Shown here: positions 2,374-9,091 of the stretch, piece by piece
Layout: every line of letters begins with the position of its first letter
Numbering within the stretch: the stretch's first letter is position 1
Assembly: GCF_045037415.1 (NCBI RefSeq)
Contig: NZ_CP173438.1
Source: Escherichia coli
Lineage (GTDB): Bacteria; Pseudomonadota; Gammaproteobacteria; Enterobacterales; Enterobacteriaceae
Length of the DNA: 64,000 bases
Strand: one strand, 5' to 3'
The notes under the pieces: model-generated
The model's database searches: none
Told to the model about the DNA's origin: nothing
What the model saw: only the letters and a program-made list of their open reading frames with translations
Program-made: the position numbers and the translations under genes

Positions 2374-3405
2374 ATGATCGCTGAACTGTTTACAAATAAT
2401 GCGCTTAATCTGGTCATTATTTTCGGTAGCTGCGCAGCATTGATTCTGATGAGCTTTTGGTTTCGCCGTGGAAATCGTAAAAGAAAAGGATTTTTATTCC
2501 ATGCGGTGCAATTTTTAATCTACACCATAATTATTAGTGCTGTTGGTAGCATCATTAACTATGTTATAGAAAACTATAAACTCAAATTTATCACCCCAGG
2601 CGTTATCGATTTTATCTGTACGTCCCTGATTGCGGTTATTCTGACGATTAAGCTATTTCTGCTGATTAATCAGTTTGAAAAACAGCAGATTAAAAAAGGT
2701 CGCGATATCACCAGTGCGCGGATCATGTCGCGCATTATCAAAATCACCATTATTGTGGTGCTTGTTCTGCTTTATGGCGAACATTTCGGCATGAGCCTTT
2801 CTGGCTTGTTGACCTTTGGTGGTATTGGTGGTCTGGCTGTCGGTATGGCCGGTAAAGATATTCTGAGTAACTTCTTTTCCGGGATTATGCTCTATTTCGA
2901 CCGTCCTTTCAGTATTGGCGACTGGATCCGTTCACCGGACAGAAATATCGAAGGTACAGTAGCGGAAATTGGCTGGCGAATTACCAAAATTAAGACCTTT
3001 GATAATCGTCCATTGTACGTACCGAACTCGCTGTTTTCGTCGATCAGCGTAGAAAATCCTGGACGAATGACCAACCGGCGCATTACCACGACCATTGGTT
3101 TACGTTATGAGGATGCGGCAAAAGTGGGCGTTATTGTCGAAGCCGTACGTGAGATGCTGAAAAATCACCCGGCCATCGACCAGCGACAAACCTTACTGGT
3201 TTATTTCAACCAGTTTGCTGATTCGTCATTAAATATTATGGTTTATTGCTTTACCAAAACCACGGTATGGGCTGAATGGCTTGCTGCACAGCAAGACGTT
3301 TATTTGAAGATTATCGATATTGTACAGTCACACGGCGCGGACTTTGCCTTCCCCAGCCAGACGCTGTATATGGATAACATTACACCGGCGGACCAGGGTC
3401 GCTAA
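2374..3405 (+). CDS. ynaI: MscS-family mechanosensitive channel YnaI
   Basis: 343-aa ORF; N-terminal TM helices plus MscS-like C-terminal domain; synteny. Confidence 0.9.
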
Positions 3406-3415
3406 ATCAGACATC

Positions 3416-3445
3416 ACTGGCGTTATCCACAAGGGTAACGCCAGT
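3416..3445. terminator. Bidirectional hairpin between convergent ynaI and mppA
   Basis: ACTGGCGTTA / TAACGCCAGT 10-bp inverted repeat with 10-nt loop. Confidence 0.5.
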
Positions 3446-3455
3446 TCTCATCACA

Positions 3456-5069
3456 TCAATGCTTCACAATATACATAGTCCGACTGTACGCCACATCTTC
3501 AGGGTTGTTAATGGGATAACCTTTCAGCCACGGCTTGATTAATCGTCCATTGGTATATTGATAAATTGGTGCAATCGGTGCTTGCTCCATGAGGATTTTT
3601 TCTGCCGCGTTGTAATCGGCATTACGCGCTTTAACGGTATTTTCCGTCGATGCCTGGGCCAGAACTTTGTCATATGCCGGATTGTTAAAGCGTGAAATAT
3701 TCCCGGAATGCGTTGACGTTAATAATGTCAGGAAAGTGGAGGGTTCATTATAATCCCCTACCCACGAGGCGCGGATAACATCAAAATTGCCGGTATTACG
3801 GCTATCGATATAGGTTTTCCATTCCTGGTTTTGCAATTTAACATCTACGCCCAGGTTCTTTTTCCACATCGATGCTACAGCAATCGCAATTTTTTGATGG
3901 TTTTCTGAAGTGTTATACAAAAGCGTCAGCTTCAGCGGTTTTTGCGGACCATAACCAGCGGCGCTCAACAAAGTTTTTGCCTGCGCATTCAGTTCTTCCT
4001 GACTCATTTGTTCAAACGGCGAAGGTTCCGGCGTAAATCCCGCGGTAACATCTGGTGTAAAATGCCACGCTGGCTTTTCGCCCGTCCCCAACACTTTTTC
4101 GGTCATCAGGCGGCGATCTATCGTCATACTTAATGCCAGGCGAACGCGCTGATCTGCCGTCGGCCCTTTTTGCGTGTTAAACGCATAATAATAGGTCCCG
4201 AGCTGCGGCGGCGTATAAACCTGCCCCGGAATATCCTTCAACAGCTTCTGATACATATTTTTCGGGAAGGATTCGGTGATATCAATATCCCCCGCGAGAT
4301 AACGCTTAGTGGCTGCGGATTCCTGATTAATTGGCAGGAAGGTCACTTTTTGCAGTACCGTTTTGGCGTTATCCCAATAATGGGTATTCGGCACTACGAC
4401 CAGTTTTTCATTGACTACGCGCTCTTTAAGAACATAAGCGCCATTGCCGATCAGATTTCCGGGTTTCGTCCACTCTTTACTGCTTTCTACGTTGGCTTTT
4501 TGCACCGGGAAGAAGGCAAAGTTAGCGGTTAAATTCACAAACCACGGCAACGGTTTATCAAGCTGGATTTTCAAAGTATGGGCATCAACTGCGGTAACGC
4601 CAAGCTGGTCAGGCGTGGCTTTACCATCAATAATCGCCTGTGCGTTGTTGATTCCCGCCAGCGCGGCAAACCATGCAAATGGCGAAAGCGTTTTCGGGTC
4701 CACCAGACGTTGCCAGCTGTAGACAAAATCTTGCGCCGTTACCGGTGTGCCATCCGCCCATTTTGCGTTATCGCGCAGGGTAAAAGTCCAGATACGGTTG
4801 TCATTACTTTTCCACTGAGTCGCAACGCCGGGGACAATCTCCCCTTTCTCGTTCTGATTCACCAGTCCTTCAAACAGATCGCGAATGACCTGAATCTCCG
4901 GCAGGCCCACGGCTTTAGCGGGATCCAGCGACGCTGGCTCATCTTTAATGTGGCGCACCAGCTCCTGCTTCTCTGCCAGTACTGTGCCGCTCGGAACTTC
5001 AGCAGCATACGAAAGAGAAATGCTGCTGACCAACAGCGCACAACACGTGACTGAAACAGAGTGCTTCAT
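3456..5069 (-). CDS. mppA: Periplasmic murein tripeptide-binding protein MppA (OppA paralog)
   Basis: ORF 3456..5090; start placed at MKHSVSVTCCALL (signal peptide) giving 537 aa; SBP family 5. Confidence 0.9.
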   Translation of the reverse strand: MKHSVSVTCCALLVSSISLSYAAEVPSGTVLAEKQELVRHIKDEPASLDPAKAVGLPEIQVIRDLFEGLVNQNEKGEIVPGVATQWKSNDNRIWTFTLRDNAKWADGTPVTAQDFVYSWQRLVDPKTLSPFAWFAALAGINNAQAIIDGKATPDQLGVTAVDAHTLKIQLDKPLPWFVNLTANFAFFPVQKANVESSKEWTKPGNLIGNGAYVLKERVVNEKLVVVPNTHYWDNAKTVLQKVTFLPINQESAATKRYLAGDIDITESFPKNMYQKLLKDIPGQVYTPPQLGTYYYAFNTQKGPTADQRVRLALSMTIDRRLMTEKVLGTGEKPAWHFTPDVTAGFTPEPSPFEQMSQEELNAQAKTLLSAAGYGPQKPLKLTLLYNTSENHQKIAIAVASMWKKNLGVDVKLQNQEWKTYIDSRNTGNFDVIRASWVGDYNEPSTFLTLLTSTHSGNISRFNNPAYDKVLAQASTENTVKARNADYNAAEKILMEQAPIAPIYQYTNGRLIKPWLKGYPINNPEDVAYSRTMYIVKH

Positions 5070-5125
5070 AAGTTTCCCTCTAACCGACATTAAAATTGAT
5101 GCGTAATTATTTGTTTCGCCTTAAA

Positions 5126-5161
5126 GAAATGCAAACAACTTCCATCAAAAAAGTGACAAAG
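5126..5161 (+). repeat. Copy A of a ~36-bp conserved element (AATGCAAACAACTTCC..CAAAAAAGTGA), upstream of mppA
   Basis: Near-identical to 8237..8273 (about 33 of 38 positions by eye). Confidence 0.7.
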
Positions 5162-5405
5162 GAAGCATCAAATGTTTTAAGTATCAATATATCAAATCAG
5201 ATTTAGTGTAAATAATAGTCTCCAAAATGCGGTAAAGCACATAGAACTCCGAACACTACGTTCGGGCTTCGCACATTCAAACCCGTTTTCGGTATCATAA
5301 TCAGCATCTGTCGCCATTGTGCGAAGAATAAAAAATAACCAAAACGTTGAAAGGAACTGAGAATACGTTAAGAGAAGAATTAAATTAATGTATCAGCAAG
5401 TAGTG

Positions 5406-6305
5406 CTAAACAGCACCTTTATACTTCAGCCTATCTATAAATAATGAGAATGCCGAGCCAGCATGTCGACGGTGTGGATAGTACAGGTGATAACCGGGTA
5501 AATCTGGTGTGAATTTATCCAAAACACGTATCAGTTTTTTTTCTTTAATAGCCCGCTCCACCTGATCATAAGGTAGATACGCCAATCCATGCCCATCAAT
5601 TGCAGCATCAATGATCAGATCTATCGTATTCAGTAAAAGCTGACCTTCCATGCGAACACGAACTTCACGTCCACCGCGTATTAATCTCCAGCGATTTGCT
5701 GTACCCGATGTGGGAAGATACAAATTAATTGCCTGATGATCTATTAATTGTGACACTGACGTTGGAGCACTTCGACGAGAAAAATAATCCGGTGAGCCAA
5801 CAATAGCCATTGGTATGTCTGGCCCGATTCGAATGGCGATCATATCTTTATCCATCTCCCCACCCAGACGGACGCCTGCATCAAAACGTTCAGAAACGAC
5901 ATCGGTCAAACCATAATCAATGGTAAGCTGAATATCAATTTCAGGATGCGATTTCAGGAATGTGCGCATGGCTGGTAACAATATCGTTTTTGCTGCATGT
6001 TCTACAGTAGTAATACGTATTGTCCCGGATGGGCGGTTCTGCAGATCGCTCAGGGATGTCAGGGCAGAATCTATGTCATGCAACATAGGGCCAAGAACAG
6101 ACAAAAGATGCTCGCCCGCTTCAGTGGGTACAACGCTGCGCGTGGTTCGCGTCAGAAGCCGCAATCCCAATCGTTCTTCTATACGGCGCACTATCTGGCT
6201 TAAAGCTGACTGCGCCATGCTCAGGCGGGCTGCTGCGCGAGTGAAGCTACGCTCCTCTGCAACAACGACAAACGCCATCAGATCAGCGATTTCTTCACGC
6301 TTCAT
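5406..6305 (-). CDS. ycjZ: LysR-family transcriptional regulator YcjZ
   Basis: 299-aa ORF; N-terminal LysR HTH (FTRAAARLSMAQSALSQ) and substrate-binding domain. Confidence 0.85.
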   Translation of the reverse strand: MKREEIADLMAFVVVAEERSFTRAAARLSMAQSALSQIVRRIEERLGLRLLTRTTRSVVPTEAGEHLLSVLGPMLHDIDSALTSLSDLQNRPSGTIRITTVEHAAKTILLPAMRTFLKSHPEIDIQLTIDYGLTDVVSERFDAGVRLGGEMDKDMIAIRIGPDIPMAIVGSPDYFSRRSAPTSVSQLIDHQAINLYLPTSGTANRWRLIRGGREVRVRMEGQLLLNTIDLIIDAAIDGHGLAYLPYDQVERAIKEKKLIRVLDKFTPDLPGYHLYYPHRRHAGSAFSLFIDRLKYKGAV

Positions 6306-6442
6306 TCAGTATCTCCATACAATCTATTAATCATTTAAATGATAGGTCTAATCATGATTTTGGGTCTAATCAACTTAATGATCAATATCTATAGTGATAT
6401 CACCAACCGTTAAAACGAACCGACAACTCCATGAGGAACGGA

Positions 6443-7363
6443 ATGATGAATAATAAAGTCAGCTTCACTAACAGCAATAATCCAACCATCTCTTTGTCTG
6501 CAGTGATCTATTTCCCTCCAAAATTTGATGAAACCCGTCAGTATCCGGCAATTGTGGTATCTCACCCAGGTGGGGGCGTTAAAGAGCAAACGGCCGGAAC
6601 CTATGCCGAAAAACTGGCGGAAAAAGGATTTGTCACTATTGCTTATGACGCATCTTATCAAGGTGAAAGCGGCGGCGAGCCGCGTCAGTTAGAAAACCCA
6701 TACATTCGTACTGAAGACGTCAGTGCCGTGATTGATTACCTGACAACGCTTTCTTATGTCGACAATACCCGAATTGGTGCGATGGGAATTTGTGCCGGTG
6801 CAGGATATACAGCCAATGCTGCAATTCAGGATCGCCGCATCAAGGCCATCGGTACTGTTAGTGCGGTCAATATTGGTTCGATGTTCCGTAATGGTTGGGA
6901 AAACAATGTGAAATCTATTGATGCCCTACCATACGTTGACGCGGGTTCAAACGCCCGAACCAGCGATATTAGCAGCGGAGAATACGCCACTATGCCACTG
7001 GCACCAATGAAGGAGTCCGATGCGCCGAACGAAGAACTGCGTCAGGCCTGGGAATATTACCACACCCCTCGCGCGCAGTATCCAACAGCACCGGGTTACG
7101 CTACTTTGCGCAGCCTTAACCAGATTATTACCTATGATGCTTACCATATGGCGGAAGTGTACCTGACTCAGCCGATACAGATTGTGGCGGGCAGCCTGGC
7201 TGGGAGCAAATGGATGAGTGACGACCTGTACGATCGAGCATCAAGCCAGGATAAACGCTATCACATTGTTGAAGGCGCAAACCATATGGATCTTTATGAT
7301 GGCAAAGTCTATGTGGCTGAAGTAATTTCAGTATTAGCTCCGTTCTTTGAGGAAACTCTGTAA
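6443..7363 (+). CDS. ycjY: Alpha/beta-hydrolase family protein YcjY
   Basis: ORF 6431..7363; start placed at second/third ATG after an AGGA; GxCxG nucleophile-elbow-like motif (MGICAGAG). Confidence 0.8.
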   Translation: MMNNKVSFTNSNNPTISLSAVIYFPPKFDETRQYPAIVVSHPGGGVKEQTAGTYAEKLAEKGFVTIAYDASYQGESGGEPRQLENPYIRTEDVSAVIDYLTTLSYVDNTRIGAMGICAGAGYTANAAIQDRRIKAIGTVSAVNIGSMFRNGWENNVKSIDALPYVDAGSNARTSDISSGEYATMPLAPMKESDAPNEELRQAWEYYHTPRAQYPTAPGYATLRSLNQIITYDAYHMAEVYLTQPIQIVAGSLAGSKWMSDDLYDRASSQDKRYHIVEGANHMDLYDGKVYVAEVISVLAPFFEETL

Positions 7364-7433
7364 TGAAACATATTCAAATCCGTAATAGTGATATGGCCTG
7401 GCATATTGCTGCCAATAATCTGGGAAAAGTTTC

Positions 7434-8072
7434 ATGAAAAATGTACTGATTCTTGGTGCTGGCGGTCAGATAGCCCGCCATGTGATTAATCAACTGGCAG
7501 ATAAACAAACCATTAAACAAACTTTATTTGCCCGTCAGCCAGCAAAAATCCACAAACCCTATCCAACTAATAGCAAGATTATTATGGGGGATGTACTGAA
7601 TCATGCAGCACTGAAGCAGGCCATGCAGGGACAGGATGTTGTGTATGCCAACCTTACGGGGGAAGATTTAGATATTCAGGCAAATTCAGTGATCGCTGCG
7701 ATGAAAGCCTGTGATGTTAAACGTCTGATCTTTGTTCTTTCCCTCGGTATTTATGATGAAGTTCCAGGAAAATTTGGCGAATGGAATAATGCAGTTATTG
7801 GTGAACCCCTAAAACCATTCCGCAGGGCTGCGGATGCAATTGAGGCTTCTGGACTGGAATATACAATTCTTCGCCCTGCCTGGCTGACTGATGAAGATAT
7901 TATTGATTATGAGCTTACCTCACGCAATGAACCATTCAAAGGTACGATCGTATCACGTAAGAGTGTCGCAGCATTAATCACAGATATCATCGATAAACCT
8001 GAGAAACACATTGGTGAGAATATAGGCATCAATCAACCCGGGACTGATGGTGATAAGCCCTTCTTCATGTAA
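7434..8072 (+). CDS. NAD(P)-binding NmrA/SDR-like oxidoreductase (ymjC-like, apparently intact)
   Basis: 212-aa ORF; N-terminal Rossmann motif VLILGAGGQIARHV. Confidence 0.75.
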   Translation: MKNVLILGAGGQIARHVINQLADKQTIKQTLFARQPAKIHKPYPTNSKIIMGDVLNHAALKQAMQGQDVVYANLTGEDLDIQANSVIAAMKACDVKRLIFVLSLGIYDEVPGKFGEWNNAVIGEPLKPFRRAADAIEASGLEYTILRPAWLTDEDIIDYELTSRNEPFKGTIVSRKSVAALITDIIDKPEKHIGENIGINQPGTDGDKPFFM

Positions 8073-8090
8073 ATCAATTATATAGCTACC

Positions 8091-8117
8091 ATCGTACTGT
8101 ACTATGTGCAGTACGAT
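8091..8117 (+). terminator. Hairpin downstream of the ymjC-like gene
   Basis: ATCGTACTG / CAGTACGAT 9-bp inverted repeat followed by an AT-rich tract. Confidence 0.4.
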
Positions 8118-8236
8118 TTATTAAACTTATTAAGGTGAACTGATCAATCAGATGCGATTAACATGTGTAGAACCAGTAAGAATAAAATACGCCATGTATA
8201 TAACATTACGACAATTCTAATATCTGCACATCAATG

Positions 8237-8273
8237 AAAATGCAAACAACTTCCGGCAAAAAAGTGATACAAG
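8237..8273 (+). repeat. Copy B of the ~36-bp conserved element, upstream of mpaA
   Basis: Near-identical to 5126..5161. Confidence 0.7.
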
Positions 8274-8362
8274 ATCGATGACATAGCGTTGAAGAAAAGG
8301 ATTTGATAATCCGCAAAATTTGCACAACACTGCCTGTAATACTTCCTGAACCAGAGACGATC

Positions 8363-9091
8363 ATGACCGTAACTCGCCCACGCGCCGAACGCGGCGCATT
8401 TCCGCCCGGAACAGAACATTACGGACGTTCATTATTGGGCGCGCCGTTAATCTGGTTTCCGGCCCCTGCAGCCAGTCACGAAAGTGGTTTGATTCTGGCT
8501 GGCACTCACGGTGATGAAAACTCTTCGATCGTCACGCTCTCCTGTGCTCTGCGGACTTTGACACCTTCTTTGCGCCGCCATCATGTGGTGCTGTGTGTGA
8601 ATCCTGACGGCTGCCAGTTAGGGTTACGGGCCAATGCTAATGGTGTGGATTTAAACCGAAACTTTCCGGCAGCGAACTGGAAGGAAGGTGAAACAGTTTA
8701 TCGCTGGAACAGCGCCGCTGAAGAACGTGATGTTGTATTACTGACAGGTGACAAACCTGGCTCCGAACCTGAAACCCAGGCGCTGTGCCAGCTTATACAC
8801 CGCATTCAACCTGCCTGGGTGGTCTCATTCCACGATCCGCTGGCCTGTATTGAAGATCCCAGACACAGCGAATTAGGTGAATGGCTGGCCCAGGCGTTTG
8901 AATTGCCTCTGGTAACCAGCGTCGGTTATGAAACGCCTGGCTCTTTCGGCAGTTGGTGTGCAGATCTCAACTTGCATTGCATCACCGCAGAGTTTCCACC
9001 CATCTCCTCCGACGAAGCCAGCGAAAAATATCTCTTTGCGATGGCAAACTTGCTGCGCTGGCATCCTAAAGATGCAATTCGCCCGTCGTGA
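8363..9091 (+). CDS. mpaA: Murein peptide amidase A (gamma-D-Glu-meso-DAP amidase, M14 family)
   Basis: ORF 8303..9091; start placed at MTVTRPRAERG giving 242 aa; zinc-carboxypeptidase-like HGDE motif. Confidence 0.9.
   Translation: MTVTRPRAERGAFPPGTEHYGRSLLGAPLIWFPAPAASHESGLILAGTHGDENSSIVTLSCALRTLTPSLRRHHVVLCVNPDGCQLGLRANANGVDLNRNFPAANWKEGETVYRWNSAAEERDVVLLTGDKPGSEPETQALCQLIHRIQPAWVVSFHDPLACIEDPRHSELGEWLAQAFELPLVTSVGYETPGSFGSWCADLNLHCITAEFPPISSDEASEKYLFAMANLLRWHPKDAIRPS

Follow-up and report, generated by a model that had tools for sequence, protein, structure and literature searches.

The intact open reading frame at 7434-8072 of the window, the whole 64,000-nucleotide stretch of Escherichia coli DNA that was analyzed, is a real reductase gene and not a chance ORF. 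It probably encodes an NAD(P)H-dependent reductase that lacks the classical catalytic tyrosine, and would be the last gene of a horizontally acquired, stepwise-decaying LysR-hydrolase-hydrolase-reductase cassette. The gene is no new discovery: thousands of genomes carry it in their annotation, a crystal structure of the Shigella orthologue has been solved, and ymjC and ymjD stand in the K-12 annotation. The SDR gene itself is an ordinary one, and the history of the cassette adds a modest interest. The features of the locus are as follows.

5127..5163: left copy of a 37-nt direct repeat flanking the putative inserted cassette
5164..8237: predicted inserted segment, 3,074 bp here, with pgrR, ycjY, the hyd2 remnant and the SDR gene
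5406..6305, minus strand: pgrR (ycjZ), divergent LysR-type regulator with Pfam HTH_1 and LysR_substrate domains, annotated pgrR
6330..6343: perfect 14-bp palindrome, ATCATTTAAATGAT, in the pgrR/ycjY divergent control region
6443..7363, plus strand: ycjY, COG1073/DLH/S15-like serine alpha/beta hydrolase, first operon gene
7363..7437, plus strand: ymjD, 24 codons, in-frame remnant of the deleted alpha/beta-hydrolase gene hyd2
7434..8072, plus strand: SDR gene between ycjY and mpaA, identified by PF13460, identity to 3QVO, AF2/Foldseek and dN/dS
7573..8236: segment missing from K-12, 664 bp, with SDR codons 47-212, the hairpin and what remains of the insert as far as its right boundary
8091..8117, plus strand: stem-loop with a 12-bp stem, 19 nt past the SDR stop, followed by a T-rich stretch (TTTATTAAACTTATT)
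8238..8274: right copy of the 37-nt direct repeat, where native mpaA upstream DNA restarts
8363-9091: mpaA, downstream neighbour of the SDR gene

Fold and family of the 212-residue protein

The earlier note had described an intact NmrA/SDR-like oxidoreductase with an N-terminal Rossmann motif, and the description holds. The ATG-started frame of 212 codons is intact in the ORF list, and a Pfam search aligned residues 8-189 of its product with positions 1-184 of the 184 in NAD_binding_10 (PF13460), at 184.1 bits (E 3e-54) against a curated gathering cut-off of 27.2. The NmrA profile (PF05368) matches residues 2-100 at its positions 3-104 of 298 (41.8 bits, E 1.3e-10); the C-terminal domain of the two-domain NmrA architecture of ~300 residues is absent from the 212-residue protein. 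NCBIfam gave no specific (equivalog) model for it, the best score being 24 bits. The exact protein is found on at least 1000 contigs under the public label "SDR family oxidoreductase [Escherichia coli]". By its sequence it would be an atypical SDR, or NAD(P)H-binding reductase, and the full-length form of K-12 ymjC.

The protein was modelled with AF2 at a pLDDT of 78.5. Strand 4-7 followed by helix 11-20 forms a beta-alpha-beta Rossmann unit with a GxxGxxG/A motif, here G8-A-G-G11-Q-I-A14; neither G8 nor G11 varies among 24 orthologues. Residues 105-121, modelled at pLDDT below 50, are probably a substrate lid. The top Foldseek match of the model is 3QVO (E 8e-30), followed by the Veillonella SDR structures 3R6D/4HNG (1e-15), BLVRB (1HDO, 1.5e-11, TM 0.73) and ChuY (5GUY/5FFQ, 3e-10), and the fold is closer to the BLVRB/ChuY-type NAD_binding_10 proteins than to NmrA proper. 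The 24 orthologues, from alpha-, beta- and gamma-proteobacteria, share 82 invariant columns and the window protein retains all 82.

The Tyr-x3-Lys of classical and extended SDRs is replaced, in the sequence alignment, by Leu126 and Arg130. Both are invariant in the 24 orthologues and lie at the start of helix 5 (E124-P-L126-K-P-F-R130-R). Because the pair is absent at the aligned position, catalysis by the classical mechanism cannot be assumed. Other tyrosines of the protein are conserved (Y107, Y143, Y159), and BLVRB and ChuY likewise have no Tyr at the aligned helix-5 position. S103, found in 22 of the 24 orthologues and replaced by Ala in two, aligns by HMMER with BLVRB S111 and ChuY S106. 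Invariant R34 aligns by HMMER with the Arg after beta-2 of NADP-bound BLVRB, and NADPH is probably the preferred cofactor, judging from the sequence. The protein is probably soluble as well as NADPH-dependent.

The nearest known structure, 3QVO from Shigella flexneri, is the same gene product, with about 99% identity over 212 residues and 3 substitutions; it has V where the window protein and the family have an invariant G115. 3QVO is a structural-genomics entry, solved but uncharacterized, under the names 'Rossmann-fold NAD(P)-binding family protein' and 'NmrA family protein', and the protein's function is unassigned, as had been stated. The Veillonella parvula SDR (3R6D/4HNG/4HNH/4IPT), an uncharacterized Firmicute protein, resembles it in length and fold and aligns end to end at about 29% identity, the C-terminal DKPxF motif included, but has a Tyr near the helix-5 start where the 212-residue family has Glu/Asp-Pro-Leu. 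Human BLVRB (biliverdin-IX-beta reductase / flavin reductase, 1HDO), a ~205-residue single-domain Rossmann reductase also without the SDR catalytic Tyr, is about 21% identical (profile E 8e-12) and shares the Ser and the Arg after beta-2. It differs in having His153 where this SDR family has an invariant Trp (W150), in a C-terminal third that is unalignable by sequence, and in its unrelated genomic context.

The anaerobilin reductase ChuY/ShuY (5FFQ, 5GUY), a small bacterial NAD_binding_10 reductase with about 20% identity, has the S-L-G-x-x-D segment and the ILRP motif in common with the protein. ChuY works in the chu heme-utilization locus, whereas the 212-residue SDR has no heme genes nearby; the chuW-chuX-chuY context is replaced by pgrR, ycjY and mpaA in the window, and by hydrolase and LysR genes in 79 loci of other species. 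YhfK (Listeria/Bacillus), an SDR_a5 ene reductase, belongs to the same Pfam family and is of the same size, but it retains the Ser-Tyr-Lys triad where the present family has Leu126/Arg130; the structure of a YhfK homologue, 3E8X, is a weak match (E 1e-5). A detoxifying ene-reductase role on alpha,beta-unsaturated aldehydes has been demonstrated for YhfK, and the characterized small NAD_binding_10 / SDR_a5 enzymes YhfK, ChuY, Par1 and DVR reduce activated double bonds (PMC10269891).

The SDR gene is under purifying selection (dN/dS 0.03-0.10 against orthologues). The ratio is 0.095 against O26 (6 synonymous and 2 non-synonymous changes), 0.046 against the Klebsiella/Salmonella orthologue and 0.032 against Serratia; UTI89 differs by 1 amino acid, with 0 synonymous changes.

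An apparently foreign cassette between mppA and mpaA

The earlier note gave K-12 only fragments, ymjC and ymjD, between ycjY and mpaA. Its reference sequence NC_000913.3 indeed has nothing but ymjD (66 nt) and ymjC (183 nt) annotated there and lacks the intact 212-codon ORF. Alignment showed that K-12 is without 7573-8236, with an AAT microhomology at the junction, and the deletion endpoint falls within 1-2 nt of the insertion boundary. As a consequence of this 664-bp deletion ymjC (b4525) retains SDR codons 1-46 only and ends in 14 out-of-frame codons; PGAP labels the K-12 piece 'NAD-dependent dehydratase, incomplete, missing C-terminus'. The uninterrupted ycjY...mpaA arrangement that has been studied in K-12 results from this deletion.

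ymjD was rejected as an independent small gene. Its first 18 codons are the start of the 310-residue hyd2 of O26 (L002 2563-3495) and are followed by the last hyd2 codons (LG). K-12 ymjD (b4673) has the same remnant and the same hyd2-deletion junction as the window, but it ends after 21 codons at the original hyd2 TAA, whereas in the window TAA has become AAA and the frame reads through to 24 codons, overlapping the SDR start. ymjD shares nucleotides with both neighbours, its ATG with the stop of ycjY (TAATG) and its TGA with the start of the SDR gene (ATGA), which suggests translational coupling along ycjY-ymjD-SDR.

YcjY matches the PDB entry 5XB6, 'YcjY', at E 1e-199; its Pfam matches (Peptidase_S15, DLH, PETase-like) are all weak and do not define its chemistry. 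The best NCBIfam match of the hydrolases, the UilS lactonase model, scored 76-86 bits (86 for YcjY), far under the cut-off of 400, so membership was dropped and the match is kept as a lead only. The palindrome ATCATTTAAATGAT is common to the E. coli, Klebsiella/Salmonella and Serratia cassettes and is a candidate LysR box to which PgrR may bind. The stem-loop folds with an MFE of -16.8 kcal/mol (z -3.4), and the Klebsiella/Salmonella cluster retains the stem with both arms changed (ATCGTAC/GTACGAT vs CCCGTAC/GTACGGG). A simple terminator scan did not flag this hairpin 3' of the SDR gene. It is terminator-like or intercistronic, and is deleted in K-12; we do not claim a strong terminator because the hairpin is intercistronic in the Klebsiella-type cluster.

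Several features point to insertion. The copies of the 37-nt direct repeat are 86% identical at a spacing of 3111 (repeat search), and one copy is present in E. coli with an empty site and in the mppA-mpaA spacer of Citrobacter. No cassette separates mppA from mpaA in Citrobacter, Enterobacter, Klebsiella or 174 E. coli genomes, where the two genes are direct neighbours. The inserted segment, about 3,970 bp in the full allele versus 3,074 bp in the window, has a GC content of 43-48% compared with 54-55% for mpaA/ycjG. As to donor homology at its ends, 43 nt 3' of the SDR gene match the Klebsiella/Salmonella cluster, and a search with the left end (5164-5405) gave no match. The repeat, the empty sites and the GC content suggest that the cassette is a horizontally acquired insertion in the E. 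coli mppA/mpaA intergenic region.

A census of 5,426 complete E. coli genomes found the full cassette, with hyd2 present as in O26, in about 1,272 and the window-type allele in about 1,656. The K-12-type junction, with the SDR gene deleted, occurs in 2,293 (42%) and the empty site in 174 (3%). hyd2 has been lost in about 73% of the genomes, and the region with the reductase and the hairpin is kept in roughly 54%. In strain 2020S05-013-17 an IS5 lies inside the SDR gene, in strain 23555 an IS1 lies nearby, and truncated SDR proteins of 162 and 171 residues form clusters with hundreds of members. Deletion in 42% of genomes and IS insertions in some imply that the gene is dispensable in many niches. 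Decay would have begun with the loss of hyd2, leaving ymjD (the window allele), followed by that of most of the reductase gene (K-12). The K-12 ycjY-ymjD-ymjC-mpaA operon is what decay has left of a foreign four-gene cassette.

The cassette was defined as a divergent PgrR-like LysR gene, then YcjY-like and hyd2-like hydrolase genes and the 212-residue SDR gene on one strand; the window holds the LysR gene, Hyd1, the hyd2 remnant and the SDR gene. Outside E. coli, the flanks of orthologous SDR genes were scanned for neighbours in 79 species loci (5 kb for hydrolases). At least one YcjY-family hydrolase gene is within 5 kb in 67 and both are in 43, hyd2 lies immediately upstream of the SDR gene in 45, and a PgrR-like LysR gene is near it in 55. 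None of the 79 has MpaA, YcjG or MppA in the flanks. These counts agree with the proposal, made in the earlier note, that ycjY (hydrolase), ycjZ (LysR regulator) and the SDR gene make up a small module. When complete, the module has two paralogous hydrolases; the second is lost from the window, where ymjD remains of it. ycjZ is now named PgrR.

The full gene order is seen in O26, a Klebsiella plasmid, Serratia and Pseudomonas, and the strict canonical order in 27 of the 79 loci. The cassette was found in Klebsiella/Salmonella, Serratia, P. aeruginosa, Burkholderia, Stenotrophomonas and Delftia, with a PgrR homologue in the same divergent position in Klebsiella, Serratia, Pseudomonas, Delftia and Stenotrophomonas. 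A scan of genome contigs returned no Escherichia locus, one likely reason being a representative genome with a K-12-like deletion. The Klebsiella copy is on the conjugative IncF plasmid pKGB1a, and the Pseudomonas/Delftia cassette adjoins Trb conjugation genes, with three different left flanks. Other reductase genes (OYE, Flavodoxin_2/_4, adh_short) often adjoin the cassette. The unit pgrR(ycjZ)<->ycjY-hyd2-SDR is a mobile cassette.

Role of the reductase

We infer the enzymatic activity, cofactor preference, substrate class and co-transcription of the SDR gene. Its product most likely serves as an NADPH-dependent reductase within a module for detoxification or catabolism under PgrR control. 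The operon would consist of two paralogous COG1073/dienelactone-hydrolase-like serine hydrolase genes and then the reductase gene, with PgrR/YcjZ divergent. PgrR may sense a small molecule and control the ycjY promoter. The hydrolases would open an ester or lactone, and the reductase would transfer hydride from NADPH to an activated C=C, a quinone or a carbonyl of the same compound or its product, such that a xenobiotic or a plant or microbial metabolite might be detoxified or funnelled.

The protein could instead be an NmrA-like, non-catalytic NAD(P)(H) sensor that tunes PgrR or another regulator by redox state. The 3QVO depositors' name, the Pfam NmrA match, the missing classical Tyr and the LysR gene nearby (PgrR-like in 55 of 79 loci) would all fit such a sensor. 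But the NmrA match takes in the Rossmann N-terminus only whereas NAD_binding_10 runs end to end; BLVRB and ChuY, the nearest characterized relatives, also lack the Tyr and are true enzymes; the gene sits in an enzyme operon, often with more reductases; and the invariant surface includes the presumed substrate side, e.g. W150, D153 and the GDKPYFM C-terminus. We regard a sensor as unlikely. That the gene is a decaying passenger in E. coli, one without current function which decay has yet to reach in the window strain, is quite unlikely. Such a passenger would be expected from the stepwise loss in the species (hyd2, the SDR gene and the whole cassette), the IS5 and IS1 insertions and the truncated clusters, but not from a dN/dS of 0.095 within E. 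coli with a single amino-acid change and no synonymous one against UTI89, the retention of all family-invariant residues, the preserved translational-coupling overlap with the upstream ORF, or the keeping of the region in about 54% of the genomes.

The position of the SDR gene between mppA and mpaA-ycjG raises a role in murein-tripeptide (peptidoglycan) recycling, in which the reductase would share a PgrR regulon with mpaA, ycjG and mppA and use a compound derived from the cell wall. PMC5934670 describes PgrR as the 'regulator of peptidoglycan recycling', with ycjY-ymjDC-mpaA as its target in K-12; overexpression of ycjY causes filamentation (PMC3614548). The species loci argue otherwise, with MpaA, YcjG and MppA in none of the 79 and LysR and hydrolases in most. 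So do the cassette-free mppA-mpaA pairs, the direct repeat around the cassette with its lower GC, and the K-12 contiguity of ycjY and mpaA, which arose from the 664-bp deletion. A peptidoglycan-related role is very unlikely, and was rejected on the 79 loci and the cassette-free pairs of three genera and 174 E. coli genomes.

PgrR and the K-12 reference

We also put forward a broader reading, tentatively. PgrR/YcjZ may be the cognate sensor of a mobile lactone/ester/electrophile cassette and not originally a peptidoglycan-recycling regulator, with mpaA rewired in K-12 and the reductases acting on a new class of substrate. If true, the cassette came to lie within the control region from which mppA and mpaA diverge, and the 664-bp deletion of K-12 fused mpaA to the PgrR-controlled ycjY transcript with loss of the reductase and the 3' hairpin. 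The 'PgrR regulon' of K-12 would then have arisen by accidental rewiring in that lineage, mpaA would be under different control in strains with the intact allele, and the 212-residue family would add a new substrate class to the Tyr-less, BLVRB/ChuY-like ene/quinone reductases.

The K-12 reference is misleading as a picture of the pgrR-mpaA locus. If PgrR is the cassette's own regulator, what has been concluded on its part in peptidoglycan recycling may not hold for the roughly 54% of E. coli in which the reductase and the hairpin are kept. The 212-residue reductase is 55-70% identical across Proteobacteria and beyond, which with the steady company of hydrolases makes this a well-defined, experimentally tractable orphan enzyme family, one for which a crystal structure (3QVO) is already at hand.

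A probable reductase gene between ycjY and mpaA

The SDR gene is the full-length form of ymjC of K-12. The earlier note had read it as an intact 212-aa oxidoreductase gene between ycjY and mpaA, and the reading holds. The arrangement is as follows.

6443-7363: ycjY, one flank of the SDR ORF
7434-8072, + strand: SDR ORF, ATG start, 212 codons
8363-9091: mpaA, the other flank of the SDR ORF

The SDR is matched end to end by Pfam PF13460 NAD_binding_10 (184 bits, E 3e-54); NmrA, Epimerase and 3Beta_HSD give weaker, partial Pfam matches to the Rossmann N-terminus only. Along its full 212 residues it shares ~99% identity with PDB 3QVO, a structural genomics entry from Shigella flexneri that is uncharacterised. 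The identical protein is recorded on at least 1000 contigs as "SDR family oxidoreductase [Escherichia coli]". Codon comparisons gave dN/dS values of 0.095 with the O26 allele, 0.046 with the Klebsiella/Salmonella orthologue and 0.032 with Serratia. Together the Pfam match, the 3QVO identity, the contig records and the low dN/dS show that the ORF is a genuine gene. For ycjY, the mechanical ORF begins at ATG 6431 (310 aa) versus 6443 (306 aa, MMNNK...) in all public annotations.

The inserted cassette and its relatives

The full cassette consists of pgrR (ycjZ, a LysR-type regulator gene) divergent from ycjY, hyd2 (a second YcjY-like hydrolase gene) and the SDR gene. The Citrobacter mppA-mpaA spacer aligns in two parts, the left to 4801-5156 and the right to 8238-8700, with ~30 bp of overlap. 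The overlap corresponds to a 37-nt direct repeat whose sequence is single-copy in the Citrobacter spacer and in cassette-free E. coli (174 genomes without the cassette), and this defines the inserted segment.

5127-5163 and 8238-8274: 37-nt direct repeat, copies 86% identical, bracketing pgrR-ycjY-ymjD-SDR
5164-8237: inserted segment, 3,074 bp long (full allele, ~3,970 bp)

The repeat looks like a target duplication or an attachment-site duplication of an insertion. The genes of the inserted segment have a GC content of 43-48%, against 54-55% for mpaA and ycjG. In O26, PGAP annotates a partial QueH (epoxyqueuosine reductase) pseudogene in the mppA-pgrR spacer (416-508 of the O26:H11 11368 locus). 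A constant offset of +4800 places it at ~5216-5308 (-), inside the left end of the insert, and it could be a leftover from the donor genome.

Exact-protein look-ups showed that a LysR gene divergent from two hydrolase genes and a 212-aa SDR gene recurs outside E. coli:

Klebsiella aerogenes/Salmonella: cassette, then an adh_short SDR and an Old-Yellow-Enzyme (OYE)
Serratia marcescens: same arrangement
P. aeruginosa and Delftia: cassette, then a Flavodoxin_4 protein, adjoining Trb-type conjugation genes
Stenotrophomonas: cassette within a long series of reductases
Burkholderia: same arrangement
pKGB1a, a conjugative IncF plasmid of K. variicola: same four cassette genes

DUF2274-TrbI-TrbG-TrbF-TrbL genes lie directly beside the cassette and Flavodoxin_4 gene in P. 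aeruginosa, Delftia and metagenomes (L010, L015, L016, L017), and three different chromosomal left flanks at these loci fit cargo carried at one end of an integrative conjugative element. In Klebsiella/Salmonella-type loci (L005-L007, 9068-10978) anti-phage signalling genes lie ~2.4 kb 3' of the SDR. They are an AGS_C-domain cyclase with PycTM, or SMODS with SLATT, and differ between otherwise identical loci.

The neighbourhood was also tabulated by ORF/BLASTP in a scan that took one genome from each species and gave 80 loci, with the SDR recognisable in 79. At least one YcjY-family hydrolase lies within 5 kb of the SDR in 67 of the 79, both hydrolases are near it in 43, and hyd2 is directly 5' of it in 45. 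A PgrR-like LysR gene is near the SDR in 55/79, and the strict canonical order is kept in 27/79. MpaA, YcjG or MppA was found near the SDR in none of the 79. Conversely, no cassette separates the divergent neighbours mppA and mpaA in Citrobacter, Enterobacter mori and Klebsiella oxytoca. The SDR gene is thus part of a mobile cassette and not of the murein-peptide genes.

The cassette carries the following putative regulatory features:

6330-6343: 14-bp perfect palindrome ATCATTTAAATGAT, pgrR/ycjY divergent region, conserved in Klebsiella and Serratia cassettes
6350-6359: second palindrome AATCATGATT, same region, one mismatch in the Klebsiella/Salmonella sequence
8091-8117: 12-bp stem-loop, 19 nt past the SDR stop, -16.8 kcal/mol, z -3.4

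The block that holds both palindromes has almost the same sequence in the Klebsiella and Serratia cassettes, and ATCATTTAAATGAT is a plausible candidate LysR box. The stem-loop is kept in the Klebsiella/Salmonella cluster (L005 ~6656-6685) by compensatory changes in both arms and is intercistronic in larger clusters; a simple terminator scan made no call there. It appears to be a conserved hairpin of uncertain strength. On the 3' side of the SDR, 43 nt of the Klebsiella/Salmonella post-SDR spacer remain, among them what is there the ribosome-binding site of the following gene. This element, AAGGTGAA after the stem-loop, serves adh_short in that cluster and is orphaned in E. coli.

Alleles of the locus in E. 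coli

The earlier note had given K-12 only ymjC/ymjD fragments, and annotation and alignment agree on this. In the MG1655 record the ycjY-mpaA interval contains no genes but ymjD (66 nt) and ymjC (183 nt), and in another K-12 assembly PGAP calls the ymjC piece an incomplete "NAD-dependent dehydratase" with its C-terminus missing. In pairwise alignment K-12 follows the window up to 7572 and again from 8237, a 664-bp deletion with AAT microhomology. K-12 therefore does not carry the same intact 212-aa ORF: the deletion, 7573-8236, removed SDR codons 47-212, the 3' hairpin and 165 bp of spacer. Because of it, ymjC consists of 46 genuine codons and 14 out-of-frame ones. The right end of the deletion (8236/8237; ~2769-2773 of the K-12 locus) lies at most 1-2 nt from the right-hand limit of the insert, where the right repeat starts; that an aberrant excision used the insert boundary is speculation.

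E. coli O26:H11 11368 and like strains have hyd2 (2563-3495 of that locus), which lies between ycjY and the SDR and encodes a further alpha/beta hydrolase of 310 aa, a paralogue of YcjY. Since codons 1-18 of ymjD are those of hyd2 and its end is the final hyd2 codons (…LG), ymjD is an in-frame deletion remnant of hyd2. K-12 and the window share the deletion junction, so the loss of hyd2 came before that of the SDR. The remnant ATG overlaps the ycjY stop (TAATG). In the window (7363-7437) the original TAA has become AAA, so the remnant has 24 codons instead of 21, and its TGA overlaps the SDR ATG (ATGA). A cassette-free fourth allele, with a mppA-mpaA gap of 182 bp, occurs in further strains, KOr019 and one of ST648 among them. 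Searches specific to the junctions gave these counts across 5,426 complete E. coli genomes:

K-12-type junction: 2,293
hyd2-deletion junction (K-12 type and window type): 3,949
window type: ~1,656 (3,949 minus 2,293)
hyd2 present, full cassette: 1,272 (~23%)
empty site: 174

The four alleles sum to 5,395 of the 5,426 genomes. IS elements have independently disrupted the locus: IS5 splits the SDR in the full-cassette strain 2020S05-013-17 (L103 2613-4316), and in strain 23555 the matched region includes an IS1, near the SDR. Relative to the window and UTI89, 18 nt (TTACATCTAAGTCAGCAT, ~4292-4309 of the O26 locus vs ~8212) are inserted in the SDR-mpaA spacer of the O26-type allele.

Fold and possible role of the SDR

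The AlphaFold model is a single Rossmann domain (pLDDT 78.5, pTM 0.81) with residues 105-121 poorly defined. Foldseek ranked 3QVO first, followed by a Veillonella SDR (3R6D/4HNG, uncharacterised) and then by human BLVRB (E 1.5e-11, TM 0.73) and ChuY, and a profile search gave the same order. Bilins, flavins and quinones are substrates of BLVRB. The Gly-rich motif is conserved and R34 is invariant; R34 aligns with the Arg that follows beta-2 in NADP-bound BLVRB, and S103 with BLVRB S111 and ChuY S106. In the sequence alignment the classical SDR Tyr-x3-Lys is not present at the start of helix 5, which is E-P-L126-K-P-F-R130-R with L126 and R130 invariant; BLVRB and ChuY likewise lack this Tyr. 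An invariant Trp150 stands where BLVRB has His153. Conservation of the family is unusually high: at 55-70% identity it spans E. coli, Burkholderia, Stenotrophomonas, Acinetobacter and also a Bacillus locus, with 82 invariant columns across 24 sequences and an invariant C-terminal K-P-x-F-M.

The partner hydrolases are COG1073/DLH/S15-like serine hydrolases (YcjY structure, 5XB6). Their matches to the UilS lactonase model and to hydrolases of dienelactones and aromatic esters are all weak. Additional neighbours that recur are classical SDRs, OYE and reductases with a flavodoxin fold. Characterised small NAD_binding_10/SDR_a5 enzymes reduce activated double bonds; the substrates are enals for YhfK, anaerobilin for ChuY and hydroxycinnamates for Par1, while DVR reduces a vinyl group (PMC10269891). 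These relatives, hydrolases and neighbours point, with fair probability, to a general role in which the SDR would carry out an NADPH-dependent reduction alongside ester- or lactone-opening hydrolases. PgrR would control the module, and the target would be a xenobiotic or a plant or microbial metabolite with an activated C=C, quinone or carbonyl group. Any specific chemistry is much less probable.

The independence of the cassette from mpaA across taxa and the existence of empty sites contradict a role in peptidoglycan recycling. The missing catalytic Tyr would suit a non-catalytic NmrA-like sensor, but this reading is disfavoured by the full-length NAD_binding_10 match, the operon context and the fact that Tyr-less relatives are enzymes. 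The gene is dispensable in many settings, since it has been lost repeatedly in E. coli; that it is a functionless relic is disfavoured by the purifying selection on it.

Records already exist for the SDR gene, for its structure and for the K-12 fragments, and the finding as the earlier note stated it was already known. In the searchable literature, a scope outside which the primary PgrR paper falls, no description was found of the cassette, of its insertion into the mppA/mpaA control region with the 37-nt repeat, of the four-allele census or of the K-12 unit as a deletion product. That unit is described as ycjY-ymjDC-mpaA (PMC5934670, PMC3946193); by implication of the cassette history, it is the product of deletion.
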